A stretch of 64,000 bases of DNA from a virus. The first letter of the stretch is position 1; each line of letters starts with the position of its first letter. Where the stretch lies: positions 1 through 64,000 of IMG/VR virus record IMGVR_UViG_3300046690_000279. One strand, written 5' to 3'. A program made the translations under genes and the position numbers. Shown here piece after piece: positions 1,649 through 42,589 of this stretch. The notes under the pieces were generated by a model, which saw only the letters and a program-made list of their open reading frames with translations, had not been told where the DNA came from and made no database searches.

Positions 1649-1936
1649 GGTGCAGGCAGTAGGCCTTGACCGGTCCACGGTATGCACCCTGGGTGAAACC
1701 GGCTCGTACTGGCCAGCTAGTCACTGGTTGCAGCGCGCGGCGAGTAGCCCTAAATCTTGCTTCGCGTGCGGTGTGCTGGCTATTGGCGCGGCCAGTGGGA
1801 ACACAATTCCCAGCCCGTTAAAGGGCGCCGGTTCGATTCCGGACCATGCGAAGCACTTGGTAAGGGGCAGCGTCAGCGCTGGAAATGCCACCACCCCCAA
1901 GCATCGGTGCCGCGTAGCGGAATGGCCTGGTGCCAA
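1649..1936 (+). ncRNA. Unidentified multi-stem structured RNA with a 100-nt insert
   Basis: Conserved with 41902..42080; stems GGTGCA/TGCACC, CCGG/CTGG, CAGCGC/GCGCTG, CCCT/AGGG; covarying terminal hairpin. Confidence 0.65.
1757..1856 (+). ncRNA. tRNA-like insert: long closing stem, three hairpins and a T-arm
   Basis: TGCTTCGCGTG/CATGCGAAGCA stem; CCGG-TTCGATT-CCGG T-arm; absent in copy B; CTTG direct repeat at the junctions. Confidence 0.6.
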
Positions 1937-2009
1937 TGACACGTAGCTCAACAGGCAGAGCGCCGGACTGTTAATCCGGAGGTCGCAGGTTCGAGCCCTG
2001 CCGTGCCAG
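1937..2009 (+). tRNA. tRNA-Asn(GTT)
   Basis: Cloverleaf; anticodon arm CCGGA-CTGTTAA-TCCGG; one acceptor mismatch. Confidence 0.9.
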
Positions 2010-2063
2010 CGGGGGCAGACTGACGCCCCTAAGCGGTGAAACATCCGTGAAGTCAGTCACTAC

Positions 2064-4382: not shown

Positions 4383-5896
4383 GTGCCCCCTATCTGCTGA
4401 CCCCGGTCACTAAGGCGGATGTCAAGCGGGGCGATGGCGCTGACTTCGTCGACTTCTCGCAATCCTTCCTGCGGATCACCAAAGACTCTGTCGGTGGGTC
4501 CAGCGGCGAACTGCTTGTCTTCCGGGACTGGCAGTGCCAACTGTTCGGCCGGTTGCTCGCACGGCGCCCTGACGGCCGTTACAAGCATCGCCAGGCACTC
4601 GTGGGCATGCCCCGCAAGAACGGCAAGAGCGCCGTAGGTGCCGCGCTGGCTATCTTCGGCCTGGTGTCCGGTCCCCGTGGTGGTGAGGTCTACTCCATCG
4701 CCGCTGACAAGGAACAAGCGCGAATCGTCTTCGGCACTGCCAAGAAAATGATCGAGATGGCGCCAGAGATGGCGAACTCTTTCAGGGTGTACCGGGACGC
4801 TGTTGAGCTACCGGCAACCGGGTCTGTGTACCGCGTGCTGTCTGCGGAAGCCTTCACCAAAGAGGGACTCAACCCGCATCTGACGATAGCCGACGAAGTC
4901 CACGCACAGCCCACCCGTGAACTCTGGGACGTCATGAGCCTTGCCTCTGGCGCTCGCGTAGAACCCATGATGGTGGGCATCACCACCGCTGGCGTGAAGT
5001 CGGATAGCTCCGGTGGCGACAGCCTGTGTTACGGCATGTACCAGTACGGCGAGAAGATCATTCGGGGCGAGATCAACGACCCCGCTTTCTACTTTGAGTG
5101 GTGGGGGGCGCCGGAAGGTGCCGACCACAAGGACCCAGCGGTATGGGCAGCAGCGAATCCGGGCTTCAACGACATTGTGAGCGAAGAGGATTTCCACTCC
5201 TCCGTGCTGCGGACCCCGGAAGCGGAGTACCGAACCAAGCGGATGAACCAATGGGTGTCGACGGCGCAAGCCTGGCTACCCGCTGGCGCTTGGGACGAGT
5301 GCGCTGGCGACGCTGAGAGCATCGAGCCGGGTACCGAGGTGGTCCTAGGCTTTGACGGCTCGTTCAACAACGACTCAACGGCGCTTGTGGTGGTTACCTG
5401 CCCCCGGGGCGAGGATGACAAGCCCCACATTGACGTCGTGGCAGCGTGGGAAAAGCCTACGGATGCCGGGCAAGACTGGTCAGTCCCCATCTTCGATGTT
5501 GAGGACGAGATACGTAAGGCTTGCCGACGCTGGCAGGTTCGCGAGATTGTCTGTGACCCGTTCCGCTGGGCGCGCACGTATCAGATCCTCGAATCTGAGG
5601 GCCTCCCGATCGTTGAGTTCCCGCAGTCCCCCGCGCGCATGGTTCCGGCGACGCAGCGCTATTACGAAGCCGTCATGAATAAGACGCTGACTCACAGCGG
5701 CGACCCGCGCCTAGCGCGCCATCTCTCGAACTGTGTCCTGCGGACCGATTCGCGCGGCTCGCGCCTGAGTAAGGACGCGAAGGGCTCGCCCCGGAAAATC
5801 GACCTTGCCGTTTCCGCTGTCATGGCGCTGGAACGAGCCTGCCAAGAGGCGGAAGTCATTCCCGAACCCCAGTTCTTCAGTTGGGCGGATCTATAA
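4379..5896 (+). CDS. terL: Terminase large subunit
   Basis: Walker A PRKNGKS, Walker B IADEVH, ITTAG, GFDGS nuclease motif, KIDLAV. Confidence 0.97.
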   Translation: MSAPYLLTPVTKADVKRGDGADFVDFSQSFLRITKDSVGGSSGELLVFRDWQCQLFGRLLARRPDGRYKHRQALVGMPRKNGKSAVGAALAIFGLVSGPRGGEVYSIAADKEQARIVFGTAKKMIEMAPEMANSFRVYRDAVELPATGSVYRVLSAEAFTKEGLNPHLTIADEVHAQPTRELWDVMSLASGARVEPMMVGITTAGVKSDSSGGDSLCYGMYQYGEKIIRGEINDPAFYFEWWGAPEGADHKDPAVWAAANPGFNDIVSEEDFHSSVLRTPEAEYRTKRMNQWVSTAQAWLPAGAWDECAGDAESIEPGTEVVLGFDGSFNNDSTALVVVTCPRGEDDKPHIDVVAAWEKPTDAGQDWSVPIFDVEDEIRKACRRWQVREIVCDPFRWARTYQILESEGLPIVEFPQSPARMVPATQRYYEAVMNKTLTHSGDPRLARHLSNCVLRTDSRGSRLSKDAKGSPRKIDLAVSAVMALERACQEAEVIPEPQFFSWADL

Positions 5897-24682: not shown

Positions 24683-24773
24683 CATGCCAGCAGACGGCCG
24701 TACAGGGCTTCGGGCCGCAGGCGTGACGGACAGCGCGAAGGCAAACAGCGCAAGAACCTCTCTGACCTGCAAG

Positions 24774-24868
24774 AAGTGATGAAGTGACGATTTAGACCAC
24801 ACTCCAGTAATCCCTAAGGAGTTCTATAGGGATTCTGAGACTGCCCTCCAAATCGTCACTCCGTCACT
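24774..24868. repeat. Second inverted iteron-like element (N64 spacer)
   Basis: AAGTGATGAAGTGACG ... CGTCACTCCGTCACT. Confidence 0.6.
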
Positions 24869-39397: not shown

Positions 39398-39455
39398 TCC
39401 ATGTACTCAAGGGTGTGCATGTGACCCCTGACGTGTGTAGCCTTGAGTACATGGA
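39398..39455. other. attP-like site of the serine integrase (central CC at 39426-39427)
   Basis: Perfect 15-bp inverted repeat TCCATGTACTCAAGG/CCTTGAGTACATGGA with 28-bp spacer, overlapping the int ATG. Confidence 0.75.
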
Positions 39456-40920
39456 TCAGAAAACGTTGAACGTCGCGCTGTACCTGCGCCTGAGCCGGGA
39501 CGCCGAAGGCAGCGCCAGCATCGAGACCCAGCGTGCTGCGGCCCTTGCCTGGCTGGCCGCGAACGGGATCACTGACTACGTGCTCACTGAGTACCTAGAC
39601 GCTGGCGTGTCCGGCGCGAAACCCCTGGAAGCCCGTAAGGGCATGGCCCAGCTCATGACCGACGTACAGGAGCGTGTCACGGCCGCAGGGCGGAACGGGC
39701 CGGGAGAGACGATTGTCATAGCGTGGAAGCTGGACCGGTACGCGCGCAGCGTGAGTGAGTTCCTCCGCCTGGTCGCGTGGGGCCAGCCTCGCAATGTGCG
39801 GTTGGCCACGACAGACAACACGATCAACACCACCACCGCCACGGGCCGCATGGTCGCAACGTTCCTTGCAGCGCTGGCCGAGTGGGAACGCGACCTGATC
39901 AAATCGCGCATCACCGAGGGGCAGGCCACTCGACGGACGCAGGGCCGATGGGGCGCCGGAAACCCCCCGTACGGGTACCGAATCGTGTTTCGGGACGGCG
40001 CTGCGTATCTCGAAATACACGAAGAGCAAGCGGCCGTAATCCGGAAAGCCGTCGACGAGCTGTTGAACAATGAAGACAGTTCGGTAGCGAGCACAGCGCT
40101 GATGGTGGACGTGTCAGAGGCCCAATGGCGCCGGTTGCTCAAAGCGCCGACGCTGAAAGGCCAGCGCACGCACCATGGCCAACTTGTCGTTGCCGATGAT
40201 GGAATTACGCCCGTGCAATTCGCTGAGCCGATCATCGGCGCCGCTGAATTCAAAAAGATTCAAGCCAGGCTGGCGAGGCTGTCCACTGGGGCGCAGCAGA
40301 CGCCTAGGGCGGGGGCTAACCTCTGCGCCGGTATGTCCTGGTGCGCTGTCTGCAACGGGCGACTGAACGGCGGACGCAGCGACAGGGGCGAACAGCTCTA
40401 CCGGTGCAAGGCTGGGCACGTAGCCATCTACGCCCGTGTGCTCGACGAGAAAGTTGAGGCCGAATTCATGACCAGGTTCGGCGGCATGGCCGAGTACGTG
40501 GTGCGACTCGAAGGCGGTAACGACCTCAGCGACCAACTGACAGAAGCGGAGGAGCAAGCGAAGCGTCTGTCCAAGCGCATGGCTACCGCTGGCCCGCTGA
40601 TGCTCGGATCGCTCGAAGAGCTGGGCGCTGAGCTAGAAGCCACGTACGCCGCTCTAAGGGCCGCGCACGACCCTGACGTACGCGAGGTACTCGAACCCAC
40701 TGGAAGGACGGTAGGCGAAGCGTGGGAGGCCTCCCCGGGGTCGCGTGGCCGCTTGCTCAGGGACCTAGGGCTGCATGTAGTGCTGGCCGCCAACGGGCGG
40801 GGGCGAATCAGCGCGGAGCGGGTAGGCGAGCGCGTGTCGGTCTCATGGGCCGTCGGGGGCGATGATCATGACCTGGCCGAGATGCTCGGCGACCTTGACG
40901 CAGAGAGGGTTTCCCAGTGA
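39451..40920 (+). CDS. int: Large serine integrase (copy B)
   Basis: YLRLS catalytic Ser, D.GVSG, WKLDRYAR, recombinase domain, CAVC...YRC zinc ribbon, coiled coil. Confidence 0.96.
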   Translation: MDQKTLNVALYLRLSRDAEGSASIETQRAAALAWLAANGITDYVLTEYLDAGVSGAKPLEARKGMAQLMTDVQERVTAAGRNGPGETIVIAWKLDRYARSVSEFLRLVAWGQPRNVRLATTDNTINTTTATGRMVATFLAALAEWERDLIKSRITEGQATRRTQGRWGAGNPPYGYRIVFRDGAAYLEIHEEQAAVIRKAVDELLNNEDSSVASTALMVDVSEAQWRRLLKAPTLKGQRTHHGQLVVADDGITPVQFAEPIIGAAEFKKIQARLARLSTGAQQTPRAGANLCAGMSWCAVCNGRLNGGRSDRGEQLYRCKAGHVAIYARVLDEKVEAEFMTRFGGMAEYVVRLEGGNDLSDQLTEAEEQAKRLSKRMATAGPLMLGSLEELGAELEATYAALRAAHDPDVREVLEPTGRTVGEAWEASPGSRGRLLRDLGLHVVLAANGRGRISAERVGERVSVSWAVGGDDHDLAEMLGDLDAERVSQ

Positions 40921-41420: not shown

Positions 41421-41552
41421 CCTAGGTCACACTGTTTGGTCACGGGGCGATCACGGGCGAGTGCCGGTGGTCGCCCTTCGGCGTTACAGCGCACAGGGTC
41501 GGTGACGTTTCTTTTTCAGCGCCCAAGATCAACATGCCATCTGACCTGCAAC

Positions 41553-41648
41553 AAGTGATGAAGTGACGTTTTACCCCTACTTCTCAGAATCACATAAGAA
41601 AACCTATAGGGATTACAGAAGTGCCATCCATATCGTCACTTCGTCACC
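41553..41648. repeat. Inverted iteron-like element (N65 spacer)
   Basis: AAGTGATGAAGTGACG ... CGTCACTTCGTCAC. Confidence 0.6.
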
Positions 41649-41681
41649 ACGGCGCCGTTACCCACCTGTGGCCGCCCGGGG

Positions 41682-41697
41682 CCTTTCACCCGATCTA
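41682..41697 (+). promoter_or_regulatory. Candidate copy-B-specific promoter motif CCTTTCACCCGATCTA
   Basis: Occupies the position of the copy A motif; related motif at 61650. Confidence 0.45.
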
Positions 41698-41705
41698 TAT
41701 ATAGT

Positions 41706-41821
41706 GTAGGGCGGTTGTTCCCGCGCACTGAGGAACGATGACCCGGCGGTCTGAGGACCCACCCTACAAAGCGGCCCTGTGTGCTCCCGTGCCTCTCTCC
41801 CACGGTCTGAGCACCAGGGCT
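41706..41821 (+). ncRNA. Two-domain structured RNA with CCUCUCUCC loop (copy B)
   Basis: Covaries with 1317..1430. Confidence 0.65.
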
Positions 41822-41823
41822 AC

Positions 41824-41897
41824 GCCCCCTTAGCTCAGTGGTCTAGAGCGTCCGCTTGTCGTGCGGAGGGTCACCGGTTCGAATCCGGTAGGGGGCG
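41824..41897 (+). tRNA. tRNA-Asp(GTC)
   Basis: Cloverleaf; TCCGC-TTGTCGT-GCGGA; G73 discriminator. Confidence 0.85.
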
Positions 41898-41901
41898 CGC
41901 A

Positions 41902-42080
41902 GGTGCAGACAATAGGCCGTGACTGGCGCGACGATATGCACCCTGGGTGAAACCGGCGCAGACTGGCCAGCTTGTCACTGGTTGCAGCGCGCGGCGAGTA
42001 ACCCTAAATCTTGGTAAGGGGCAGCGTTAGCGCTGGAAACGCCACCACCCCCATGCAGCGGTGAACTGGTCCGCTGCCAA
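41902..42080 (+). ncRNA. Unidentified multi-stem structured RNA (insert-free form)
   Basis: Homologue of 1649..1936. Confidence 0.65.
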
Positions 42081-42153
42081 TGGCGTGTAGCTCAATCGGT
42101 AGAGCGCCGGACTGTTAATCCGGGGGTTGCTGGTTCGAATCCAGCCGTGCCAG
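42081..42153 (+). tRNA. tRNA-Asn(GTT)
   Basis: Cloverleaf; CCGGA-CTGTTAA-TCCGG. Confidence 0.9.
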
Positions 42154-42272
42154 CTCGCTTCGCGACAGTCACTGAGATTGGTCCCGGCCGTACTCCGGGC
42201 AAGTGCAACGGCGAAGCGCACCGTTCCCCAGCGTCAAAAGAGTGAGACGGCCCGCAAGGGTGCTGGGGCTAA

Positions 42273-42475: not shown

Positions 42476-42492
42476 CGGGTCCGATCGGACCA

Positions 42493-42566
42493 GGGCAGGG
42501 GCAGACGTGCCCATTAGGTTGAAGTGCCGCCAAGGCACGAGGGGTTCAAATCCCGCCTGCCCGCCA
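42493..42566 (+). ncRNA. tRNA mimic without a canonical anticodon arm
   Basis: Acceptor GGGCAGG/CCTGCCC plus G-CCA, TTCAAAT T-loop, two small hairpins; copy B only. Confidence 0.55.
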
Positions 42567-42567
42567 C

Positions 42568-42589
42568 CACATACGGATATCCGGAGGTG
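42568..42589. promoter_or_regulatory. 22-bp operator (SD variant)
   Basis: CACATACGGATATCCGGAGGTG. Confidence 0.8.

Follow-up and report, generated by a model that had tools for sequence, protein, structure and literature searches.

Two covariation-supported RNA families occupy tRNA slots in the tRNA arrays of phiC31-like Streptomyces phages

The window analysed here, 64,000 nucleotides (nt) of the IMG/VR virus record IMGVR_UViG_3300046690_000279 (positions 1 to 64,000), carries an element between tRNA genes at 1649-1936 (copy 1) and again at 41902-42080 (copy 2). An earlier note had read it as one multi-stem RNA of about 180 nt flanked by tRNAs. The structured RNA and its tRNA flanks stand; the single RNA does not, as the element is a chain of independent modules. 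The flagged region holds two separate structured RNAs, module A (~110 nt) and module B (~75 nt), and these are two new covariation-supported families without a match in Rfam 15 at E ≤ 10, which bears out the suggestion of a new class of phage non-coding RNA. Both families lie on the strand of the tRNAs and in tRNA slots, are phage-specific, and combine invariant unpaired nucleotides with a fixed geometry. We favour, at rather better than even chances, a model in which A and B are passenger RNAs of the phage tRNA operon, freed by the enzymes that process tRNA and acting in trans through a putative S-turn and their loops.

The full record is an 81,716-base-pair (bp) sequence with direct terminal repeats at its ends, made up of two tandem phage genomes of ~40.2 kb each that share ~87% identity across most of their length. 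Because the genomes are so alike overall, the likeness of 1649-1936 to 41902-42080 is by itself no evidence for a conserved RNA, and distant homologues were needed. The two copies do align as the earlier note claimed, and their sole large difference is a 99-column gap at 1759-1855, a stretch present in copy 1 only. In copy 2, a CUU linker joins module A (~108 nt) to module B (~70-80 nt). In copy 1 the two modules are separated by a 97-nt tRNA-like insert, which falls precisely at the A/B junction and is flanked by a CUU linker on either side. The two arrays of the window differ by clean insertions and deletions of module size.

BLAST against isolated phages matched only the first ~110 nt of the element, and no annotated feature underlies the matched piece in any of them. 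In Shawty, Shaeky and Shady it fills the gap between two annotated tRNAs exactly; in TG1 it lies between tRNA-Thr and the next open reading frame (ORF). A pattern scan of IMG/VR showed that the sequence 3' of module A varies, being a tRNA, a second element (module B), a third element (module C) or a tRNA look-alike. Module A is found without module B in the complete genomes of Shawty, Shaeky, TG1 and Shady and on most contigs. The order is B-tRNA-A in locus L048, module B has no module A beside it in L049 and L051, and further arrangements include A-C, A-C-B, A-B-tRNA-C and A-tRNA-like-C.

An alternative is a single ~180-nt RNA of several domains, held together by long-range helices and acting as a miniature GOLLD-like domain or a self-cleaving ribozyme. 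A and B do adjoin, 3 nt apart, in six loci that include both window copies; the sequences GGGUG of A and CACCC of B are complementary and neither varies; and the tRNA-like insert between A and B of copy 1 recalls GOLLD, whose linkers sometimes contain tRNAs (PMC12286853). Nevertheless, A and B occur independently, so neither of the long-range helices that had been proposed (GGGTG/CACCC and CAGCGC/GCGCTG) can be required. The putative partners are moreover engaged elsewhere: in module A, GGGY forms a local helix with RCCC, and in module B, CAGCG does so with CGCTG, each helix with compensatory changes. GOLLD, ROOL and all the ribozyme families of Rfam gave no match at E ≤ 10. We regard the single-RNA explanation as highly improbable, since the way the modules are distributed largely refutes it.

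Module A was collected with a covariance model (R1) and then a relaxed pattern, which gave 62 matches (65-127 bits, median pairwise identity 68%). These reduce to 56 distinct sequences from TG1, Shawty, Shaeky, Shady, about 50 IMG/VR contigs and three Streptomyces genomes. In the alignment of the 56, 97.2% of the cells in the helices are standard pairs, 13 of 24 pairs change on both sides and 138 cells are compensatory. None of 500 shuffles matched these values, and shifting the partner by 1-3 columns reduced pairing to 22-47%.

The fold consists of two tandem hairpins and has no acceptor stem. The first arm, P1, is a long irregular hairpin (1649-1688 in copy 1) whose middle has been fully replaced in several lineages. 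Its base, P1a (GGUGCA/UGCACC, 1649-1654/1683-1688), is the GGTGCA/TGCACC helix that had been noticed in the two copies, and five of its six pairs are compensatory across the homologues. A tip stem of 3-4 bp also covaries and supports a loop that reads NUGACY in all 56 sequences (UUGACC in copy 1, with UGAC at 1667-1670). A linker of 2-3 nt joins P1 to the second arm, which starts with P2 (GGGY/RCCC; GGGU 1691-1694 and GCCC 1747-1750 in copy 1), a covarying helix most often with a U.G pair. Beyond an internal loop comes P3a (GCNC/GNGC; GCUC 1702-1705 and GCGC 1735-1738), which covaries as well. Here the earlier note had drawn a CCGG/CTGG hairpin with a freely varying loop; that hairpin is confined to the two window copies and close kin, and the homologues instead pair 1702-1705 with 1735-1738 through compensatory changes. 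The middle of arm 2 is variable and leads to a 3-bp tip stem that comes in 13 sequence variants (CCAG-CUAGUCA-CUGG, 1713-1727, in copy 1). This CCAG/CTGG hairpin, also picked out before, is the best-covarying helix of the module: all three pairs covary, and each has 19-25 compensatory cells. The loop of this hairpin reads CUAGUCA in 51 of 56 sequences. The module ends with a short tail (UAAAU, 1751-1755, in copy 1).

Two unpaired features are conserved to a degree that the stems are not. The first is the internal loop of arm 2, formed by a GAAACCG strand and an GGCGAGUA strand, in which GAAA (1695-1698) faces AGUA (1743-1746); both are invariant (56/56). The GAGTA strand, which had been described as loop-E-like, is conserved across the family. 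The loop looks like a motif of the sarcin-ricin/loop-E (S-turn) type. Its invariant AGUA faces an invariant GAA and would stack on the Watson-Crick helix P2, and the equivalents of A117 and G62 adjoin the Y-R closing pair of P2, the register that the sarcin-ricin motif requires. Such a motif is a local building block and does not define a family. The second feature is the pair of tip loops. They are complementary (UGAC:GUCA), as had been pointed out for GTCA at 1720-1723 and TGAC at 1667-1670, and a contact of at least three contiguous pairs is possible in 56 of 56 sequences. One divergent lineage (L005/L019) has the P3 loop GUGGUUC and retains a shifted alternative contact, GACC:GGUU. The arms themselves are nearly constant in length, 17.8 ± 0.7 nt per strand for arm 1 and 26.6 ± 0.7 for arm 2, despite replacement of the P1 middle. 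A reading of the P3 loop as a mimic of the tRNA-Asp anticodon (GUC), or of the P1 loop as an Asp-codon (GAC) specifier, was considered and dropped: the register is off by one in a 7-nt loop and nothing else supports it. Thermodynamic folding of whole elements was likewise set aside as uninformative for so GC-rich an RNA, since the minimum-free-energy ensembles were unstable and did not reproduce the covarying helices.

The covariation also argues against any explanation that does without RNA, such as a protein-coding remnant or a DNA site (attP, cos or operator). Such an explanation could point to an ORF of 98 aa (1650-1946) that spans copy 1, and to the location of the locus between the integrase and terminase genes. 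Copy 2, however, is spanned by no ORF, and in an alignment of 26 sequences no frame is open in more than 5 members, while lengths and indels are not multiples of three. Substitutions in the stems are compensatory. At columns 66/124 U.G is the commonest pair (33 of 56 sequences), and the helices of the 26-sequence alignment contain 21 G.U against 8 A.C; the RNA is therefore read from the + strand, the only strand on which G.U is tolerated. The element is also intact on Streptomyces contigs of more than 250 kb, where the attP core of an integrated phage would be found split. The likelihood that no RNA is involved appears close to nil.

Module B, for which a covariance model (R2) was built, is represented by nine distinct sequences, in which 100% of the cells are paired and 9 of 15 pairs are compensatory. 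It reads from 5' to 3' as an invariant GGUAAGGGG, a covarying hairpin of 4-6 bp, an invariant GAAANNCCACCA, CCCC pairing back to GGGG, and a covarying 7-bp stem. In copy 1 these are GGUAAGGGG, the hairpin CAGCG/CGCUG, GAAAUGCCACCA-CCCC and the 7-bp hairpin GCAUCGG/CCUGGUGC with an inner hairpin; the loop of the 7-bp stem (UG...AAUGG) can hold such an extra hairpin. GGUAAGGGG and GAAANNCCACCA are the invariant unpaired segments of a fold with two stem-loops. The 7-bp stem is the 3' hairpin whose covariation between the two copies had been reported (GCATCGG/CCTGGTGC in one, GCAGCGG/CCGCTGC in the other), and five of its seven pairs covary in the nine sequences. Neither module B nor module C has a BLAST match in the isolated phages. 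The positions of the modules and their neighbours in the window are collected in Table 1.

Table 1. Modules and adjoining tRNA genes at the two loci of the window
Feature	Position	Strand	Support and remarks
tRNA-like gene, 6-nt anticodon loop	1574..1645	+	ARAGORN; Rfam tRNA model 46.4 bits; 3' end 3 nt before module A copy 1
Module A copy 1	1649..1755	+	Covariance model R1 114.1 bits, E 4e-25; mature RNA probably ~1646-1758
CUU linker after module A	1756..1758	+	Same 3 nt precede module B, module C, tRNA-like insert or tRNA in many relatives
tRNA-like insert	1759..1855	+	Copy 1 only; cloverleaf fold
Module B copy 1	1859..1936	+	R2 94.9 bits; CUU leader 1856-1858; CCAA end directly at 5' end of tRNA-Asn
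tRNA-Asn(GUU)	1937..2010	+	ARAGORN, Rfam; first base directly after module B copy 1
tRNA-Asp(GUC)	41824..41898	+	ARAGORN, Rfam; ends 3 nt before module A copy 2
Module A copy 2	41902..42009	+	R1 121 bits, E 1e-26; tip loops GUGACU and CUUGUCA
Module B copy 2	42013..42080	+	R2 83 bits; CUU linker 42010-42012; without the inner hairpin of the 3' stem-loop
tRNA-Asn(GUU)	42081..42154	+	ARAGORN, Rfam; first base directly after module B copy 2

Both modules nearly always adjoin tRNA genes. In about 50 of 59 loci, 1-4 nt lie between the end of a tRNA called by ARAGORN and the first paired base of A. The CCCYNAA tail of A (often extended by CUU) leads directly into a tRNA, B or C in most loci, and in most cases module B is followed by a tRNA at 0-1 nt. 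Most of the 59 loci thus have tRNAs within 0-4 nt on both sides, on the strand of the modules. The tRNA upstream of A has 18 different identities, tRNA-Asp being the most frequent; that downstream is most often tRNA-Asn or tRNA-Leu.

This distribution is that of a phage element. R1 matched one of 151 sampled Streptomyces genomes, and a pattern search located module A in three Streptomyces genomes, in each case inside a tRNA array of the phage kind. BLAST of A+C+B against three Streptomyces genomes found only the copies in phage-like tRNA arrays and no host homologue. Across pattern scans of genome collections and metagenomes the true members were the three Streptomyces genomes and one metagenome contig, the rest being chance matches that fail the model. 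No description of these RNA motifs was found in the literature.

The placement suggests how the modules may be produced. Every tRNA is cut by RNase P at its mature 5' end and loses its 3' trailer immediately behind the discriminator; a module that fills such a slot should accordingly be freed as a discrete RNA. We propose that the modules are co-transcribed with the tRNAs on the + strand and that the host enzymes of tRNA processing would release them. The RNase P cut at the 5' end of the next tRNA would set the 3' end of the module, and processing of the 3' end of the preceding tRNA would set its 5' end, 1-4 nt downstream of that tRNA. For module B of copy 1, the 3' end would be defined by the RNase P site of tRNA-Asn(GUU). 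Where modules touch one another, short A/U-rich linkers (UAAAUCUU, AAUUU) in an otherwise GC-rich RNA probably separate them and are plausible endonuclease sites. The mature RNAs would be stable molecules that act in trans, in which they would be counterparts of the small RNAs in the tRNA cluster of phage T4. The invariant loops and candidate S-turn probably serve for docking, either to each other or to a conserved partner from translation or tRNA metabolism; our default guess for this partner is a conserved protein, of host or phage, from one of those two processes.

Several points weigh against this proposal. All of the 24 listed sequencing runs that contain the sequence are DNA metagenomes from the rhizosphere, and transcription and processing are deduced from position and from the biology of RNase P and RNase Z. 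In copy 2, where no tRNA separates A from B, the two may stay joined as one RNA of ~180 nt. A scan for promoters and terminators found no consensus sites. The S-turn is assigned from a sequence pattern and its register. The loop-loop contact is invariant and so gains almost no support from covariation, the sole exception being the L005/L019 lineage. Finally, whole elements have unremarkable z-scores for minimum free energy (+1.1 and -1.3).

The conserved tip loops raise the possibility that module A assembles with itself. The packaging RNA (pRNA) of phage phi29, ~120 nt long, has two loops whose 4-nt sequences complement each other and pair from one molecule to the next. Module A is a phage RNA of similar size and also has two loops with complementary, conserved 4-nt sequences (UGAC/GUCA), which could pair either in cis or in trans. 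If it were a two-arm rod whose end loops pair between molecules, 'hand in hand' as in phi29, then dimers, rings or filaments would result. Both loops are nearly invariant (NUGACY 56/56, CUAGUCA 51/56) above stems that turn over freely. The arms differ by about nine layers, and only a 2-3-nt joint without a closing helix connects them; if straight, they could not let the tips meet in cis. Arm lengths vary less in their sum (standard deviation 0.81) than in their difference (1.12; r = -0.32), as expected if the loop-to-loop distance along a stacked rod is constrained. GOLLD and ROOL, which are also found near phage tRNA islands, assemble via kissing loops (PMC12286853). On the other hand, 4-nt complementarity between two loops has a chance of ~5-10%, the loops do not covary and could equally be sites of protein recognition or, given a bend of arm 2 at its internal loops, kiss in cis, and the arm-length statistics are weak and derive from related sequences. 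We consider self-assembly unlikely, though worth keeping in view. An elaboration, which we hold with equal reserve, has module A as a stiff rod joined head to tail, on which the displayed loops of sarcin-ricin type would capture a factor of translation or tRNA metabolism, or the neighbouring tRNA look-alikes. Were module A to self-assemble, the RNA-only quaternary assembly of GOLLD and ROOL would be a general trait of phage tRNA-island RNAs, available here in a 110-nt format that is easy to study. Module A also differs from pRNA in several respects: permissive Rfam searches of 1300-2400 and 41899-42081 gave no pRNA match, module A lies in a tRNA array and not at the genome end like a packaging gene, and these phages have an ordinary small and large terminase plus an HNH endonuclease, so no motor of the pRNA type is expected.

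The arrays also contain RNAs that resemble tRNAs and do not decode. The insert of copy 1 has an acceptor-like stem (GCUUCGCG/UGCGAAGC), a T-loop (UUCGAUU) and a 5-nt 'anticodon' loop, and folds as a cloverleaf (z = -3.25). The tRNA-Sec model (RF01852) scored 19.2 bits on 1766-1849 against a cut-off of 47, and ARAGORN made no call; the insert is not a canonical tRNA. Shorter relatives occur at the same junction in L006 and L020. More widely, a family of look-alikes with an acceptor-like stem GCUUCGCG/CGCGAAGC and lengths from 97 down to 62 nt is inserted at module boundaries (1759-1855 in the window; L006 ~4646-4709; L020 ~2740-2804; L048 ~305-328). The L048 member is a bare hairpin remnant, and that of L020 is a similar element with a different stem. 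Non-decoding tRNA-like genes with anticodon loops of 8 or 6 nt recur as well, and their stems covary between relatives (1433-1509 and 1574-1645 in the window; L006 4311-4382; L017 4162-4233; L021 5268-5339 and 5404-5478; L022 2605-2676; L011 863-935). They may be decoys or regulators rather than decoding tRNAs. In one relative the tRNA-like gene has the anticodon UUA, like an ochre suppressor. Module C, the third new element, is ~65-78 nt long, absent from the window and cloverleaf-like, with a closing stem of 4-5 bp, three hairpins in tRNA order and the 3' end GGGUCGCCA (a GCCA end). It is found after A, before B, or alone after tRNA-Asn, at sites that include L021 5085-5154, L006 4713-4782, L010 5168-5244 and L053 1689-1766.

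These RNAs would fit an explanation in which modules and look-alikes mimic or bind tRNAs, either soaking up a host enzyme directed at tRNA (anticodon nuclease, modification or processing) or clamping a specific tRNA in the manner of T-box stem I or RNase P. The several non-decoding genes with 6-nt and 8-nt anticodon loops, and a cloverleaf-like module C that ends in GCCA, point that way; an architecture of S-turn plus defined loops is of a type that tRNA-binding RNAs use, and the fixed arm lengths of module A are ruler-like. In addition, GGUAAGGG, GGGUGAAAC and GGUGUAAG are common to the modules and to one 27-nt stretch in the tRNA-elbow-binding region of Streptomyces RNase P RNA. These shared motifs are 8-9 nt each, which is the chance expectation, and GGUAAGGGG in module B joins helices arranged differently from P12 of RNase P. 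The RNase P, T-box and tRNA models have no match on A or B at E ≤ 10, and nothing ties these phages to a defence system that targets tRNA. Decoy or binding activity is in our view decidedly unlikely. The narrower idea of the modules as pieces of host RNase P RNA, or as mimics of it, was rejected, its matches being short, their helical contexts different and no model agreeing; it is a weak lead only.

Modules that are always inside tRNA arrays and in line with the tRNAs, with A most often between tRNA-Asp and tRNA-Asn or tRNA-Leu, might also be purely cis-acting spacers, which would aid the folding, processing order or stability of their neighbours and have no function once released. We give this only a slim chance. 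Ordinary tRNAs in the same arrays are often 0-3 nt apart, so no spacer is needed; the flanking tRNAs vary, with 18 upstream identities and several downstream, whereas the loops and internal loop of A are invariant; and neither invariant unpaired nucleotides nor fixed arm lengths would be expected of a mere spacer.

Comparison with known RNAs drew on Rfam 15 (4227 families), which was searched with the whole window at gathering thresholds and with three sub-regions, including the 183-nt element alone, at E ≤ 10. These searches returned only tRNAs and chance matches. The sole match of the 183-nt element was a chance fragment of a SAH riboswitch on the opposite strand (11 bits, E 7.4). The suggestion of a miniature GOLLD-like domain is not sustained: the GOLLD model (RF02032, gathering score 150 bits) has no match at E ≤ 10 in the whole 81.7-kb record, and cmscan found none at the gathering score on the whole window or at E ≤ 10 on 1300-2400 and the 183-nt element. 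The ROOL model (RF03087, gathering score 99.1 bits) has no match at E ≤ 10 in the record; it was silent on control genomes too, but the all-family cmscan agrees. The ribozyme suggestion fares no better, as no family of known self-cleaving ribozymes matches and the conserved core gives no pointer to a known self-cleaving fold. Modules A and B match neither the tRNA (RF00005) nor the tRNA-Sec (RF01852) model and receive no call from ARAGORN. They share with canonical tRNAs a size class, operon, strand and boundaries at tRNA processing sites; the copy-1 insert and module C come nearer, being cloverleaf-like with a T-loop or GCCA end.

By sequence and structure the modules belong to none of T4 RNAC/RNAD, GOLLD or ROOL. 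Closest in kind are RNAC and RNAD of T4 (species 1 and 2 RNAs), which come from its tRNA region and whose role is still unknown (PMC3014915). They too are small non-tRNA RNAs within a phage tRNA cluster, on the same strand and in slots among the tRNAs. The differences are that T4 contrasts with temperate phiC31-like siphophages and its host belongs to a different phylum, and that expression and processing have been shown for RNAC and RNAD whereas they are deduced for A and B. A 'distant' BLAST of a 50,697-record phage collection found only Streptomyces phages, and no sequence similarity to RNAC or RNAD. GOLLD and ROOL are structured RNAs of unknown function in phages and prophages, often near tRNA islands, in which kissing loops are central; each is one large RNA, the models spanning 416 and 574 positions and many members exceeding 800 nt (PMC12286853). 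They are closest to the modules in context and, if the tip loops do pair, in the use of kissing loops. The tRNA-island context that the element shares with GOLLD is all that resembles it and is insufficient for membership, as GOLLD is a single large RNA with a conserved 3' domain and the ~180-nt element splits into independent modules of ~110 and ~75 nt, for which oligomerisation is a hypothesis.

Phage tRNA islands have repeatedly been seen to hold structured RNAs; T4 RNAC and RNAD have lacked an explanation for decades, and it is only recently that GOLLD and ROOL proved to be nanocages. Here two compact families of ~110 and ~75 nt, which combine strong covariation with invariant loops and a probable S-turn, are present in phages that can be cultured and whose host is genetically tractable. 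Module A is carried unannotated by TG1, Shawty, Shaeky and Shady, so the role of passenger RNAs in phage tRNA arrays becomes directly testable. The arrays emerge as a cassette-like mix of decoding tRNAs, non-decoding look-alikes and non-tRNA modules, which argues for a role beyond the supply of rare-codon tRNAs. The models R1 and R2 could annotate genes that current pipelines leave blank.

The gene order around the tRNA array is that of phiC31-like Streptomyces phages: a serine integrase (39415-40920), a small gene resembling endonuclease VII, the array itself, a C92-amidase-like gene, the HNH endonuclease, and then the terminase genes, small before large. Among isolated phages, the closest relatives that carry the element are the Streptomyces phages Shawty (Lomovskayavirus), TG1 (Tigunavirus), Shaeky and Shady. 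The presence of two phiC31-like genomes of ~40.2 kb in tandem may reflect an assembly join of co-occurring strains and not one genome.

Other conserved sequences accompany the arrays. The spacer between tRNA-Asn and tRNA-Leu (2011-2063; GGGGGCAGACTG.CGCCCCTAAGCGGTGAAACATCCG.GAAG.CAGTCAC) is kept in relatives, including L017 and L052, and may be a further small structured module. An extra element of ~90 nt at 42477-42570, present in copy 2 and absent from copy 1, has a T-loop-like GGTTCAAATCC and a CCACCA end; neither ARAGORN nor Rfam makes a call on it. Directly 5' of the first tRNA of the array lies a conserved leader of ~120 nt (~1300-1432 and ~41690-41823 in the window; L048 1-175; L053 1380-1560) with the pattern GGTTGTTCCCGCGCA ... 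CGGCGGAC ... CTCTCTCCC ..., which may be the operon promoter plus a structured 5' leader. A repeat of ~100 nt, bounded by the inverted repeat GAAGTGACG ... CGTCACTTC, is found upstream of the tRNA array (1185-1275 and 41545-41650) and again before the rightward operon at ~24.9 kb (24761-24867). It is probably a phage-specific class of promoter or operator, and if so the expression of the array would be tied to that of the rightward operon.

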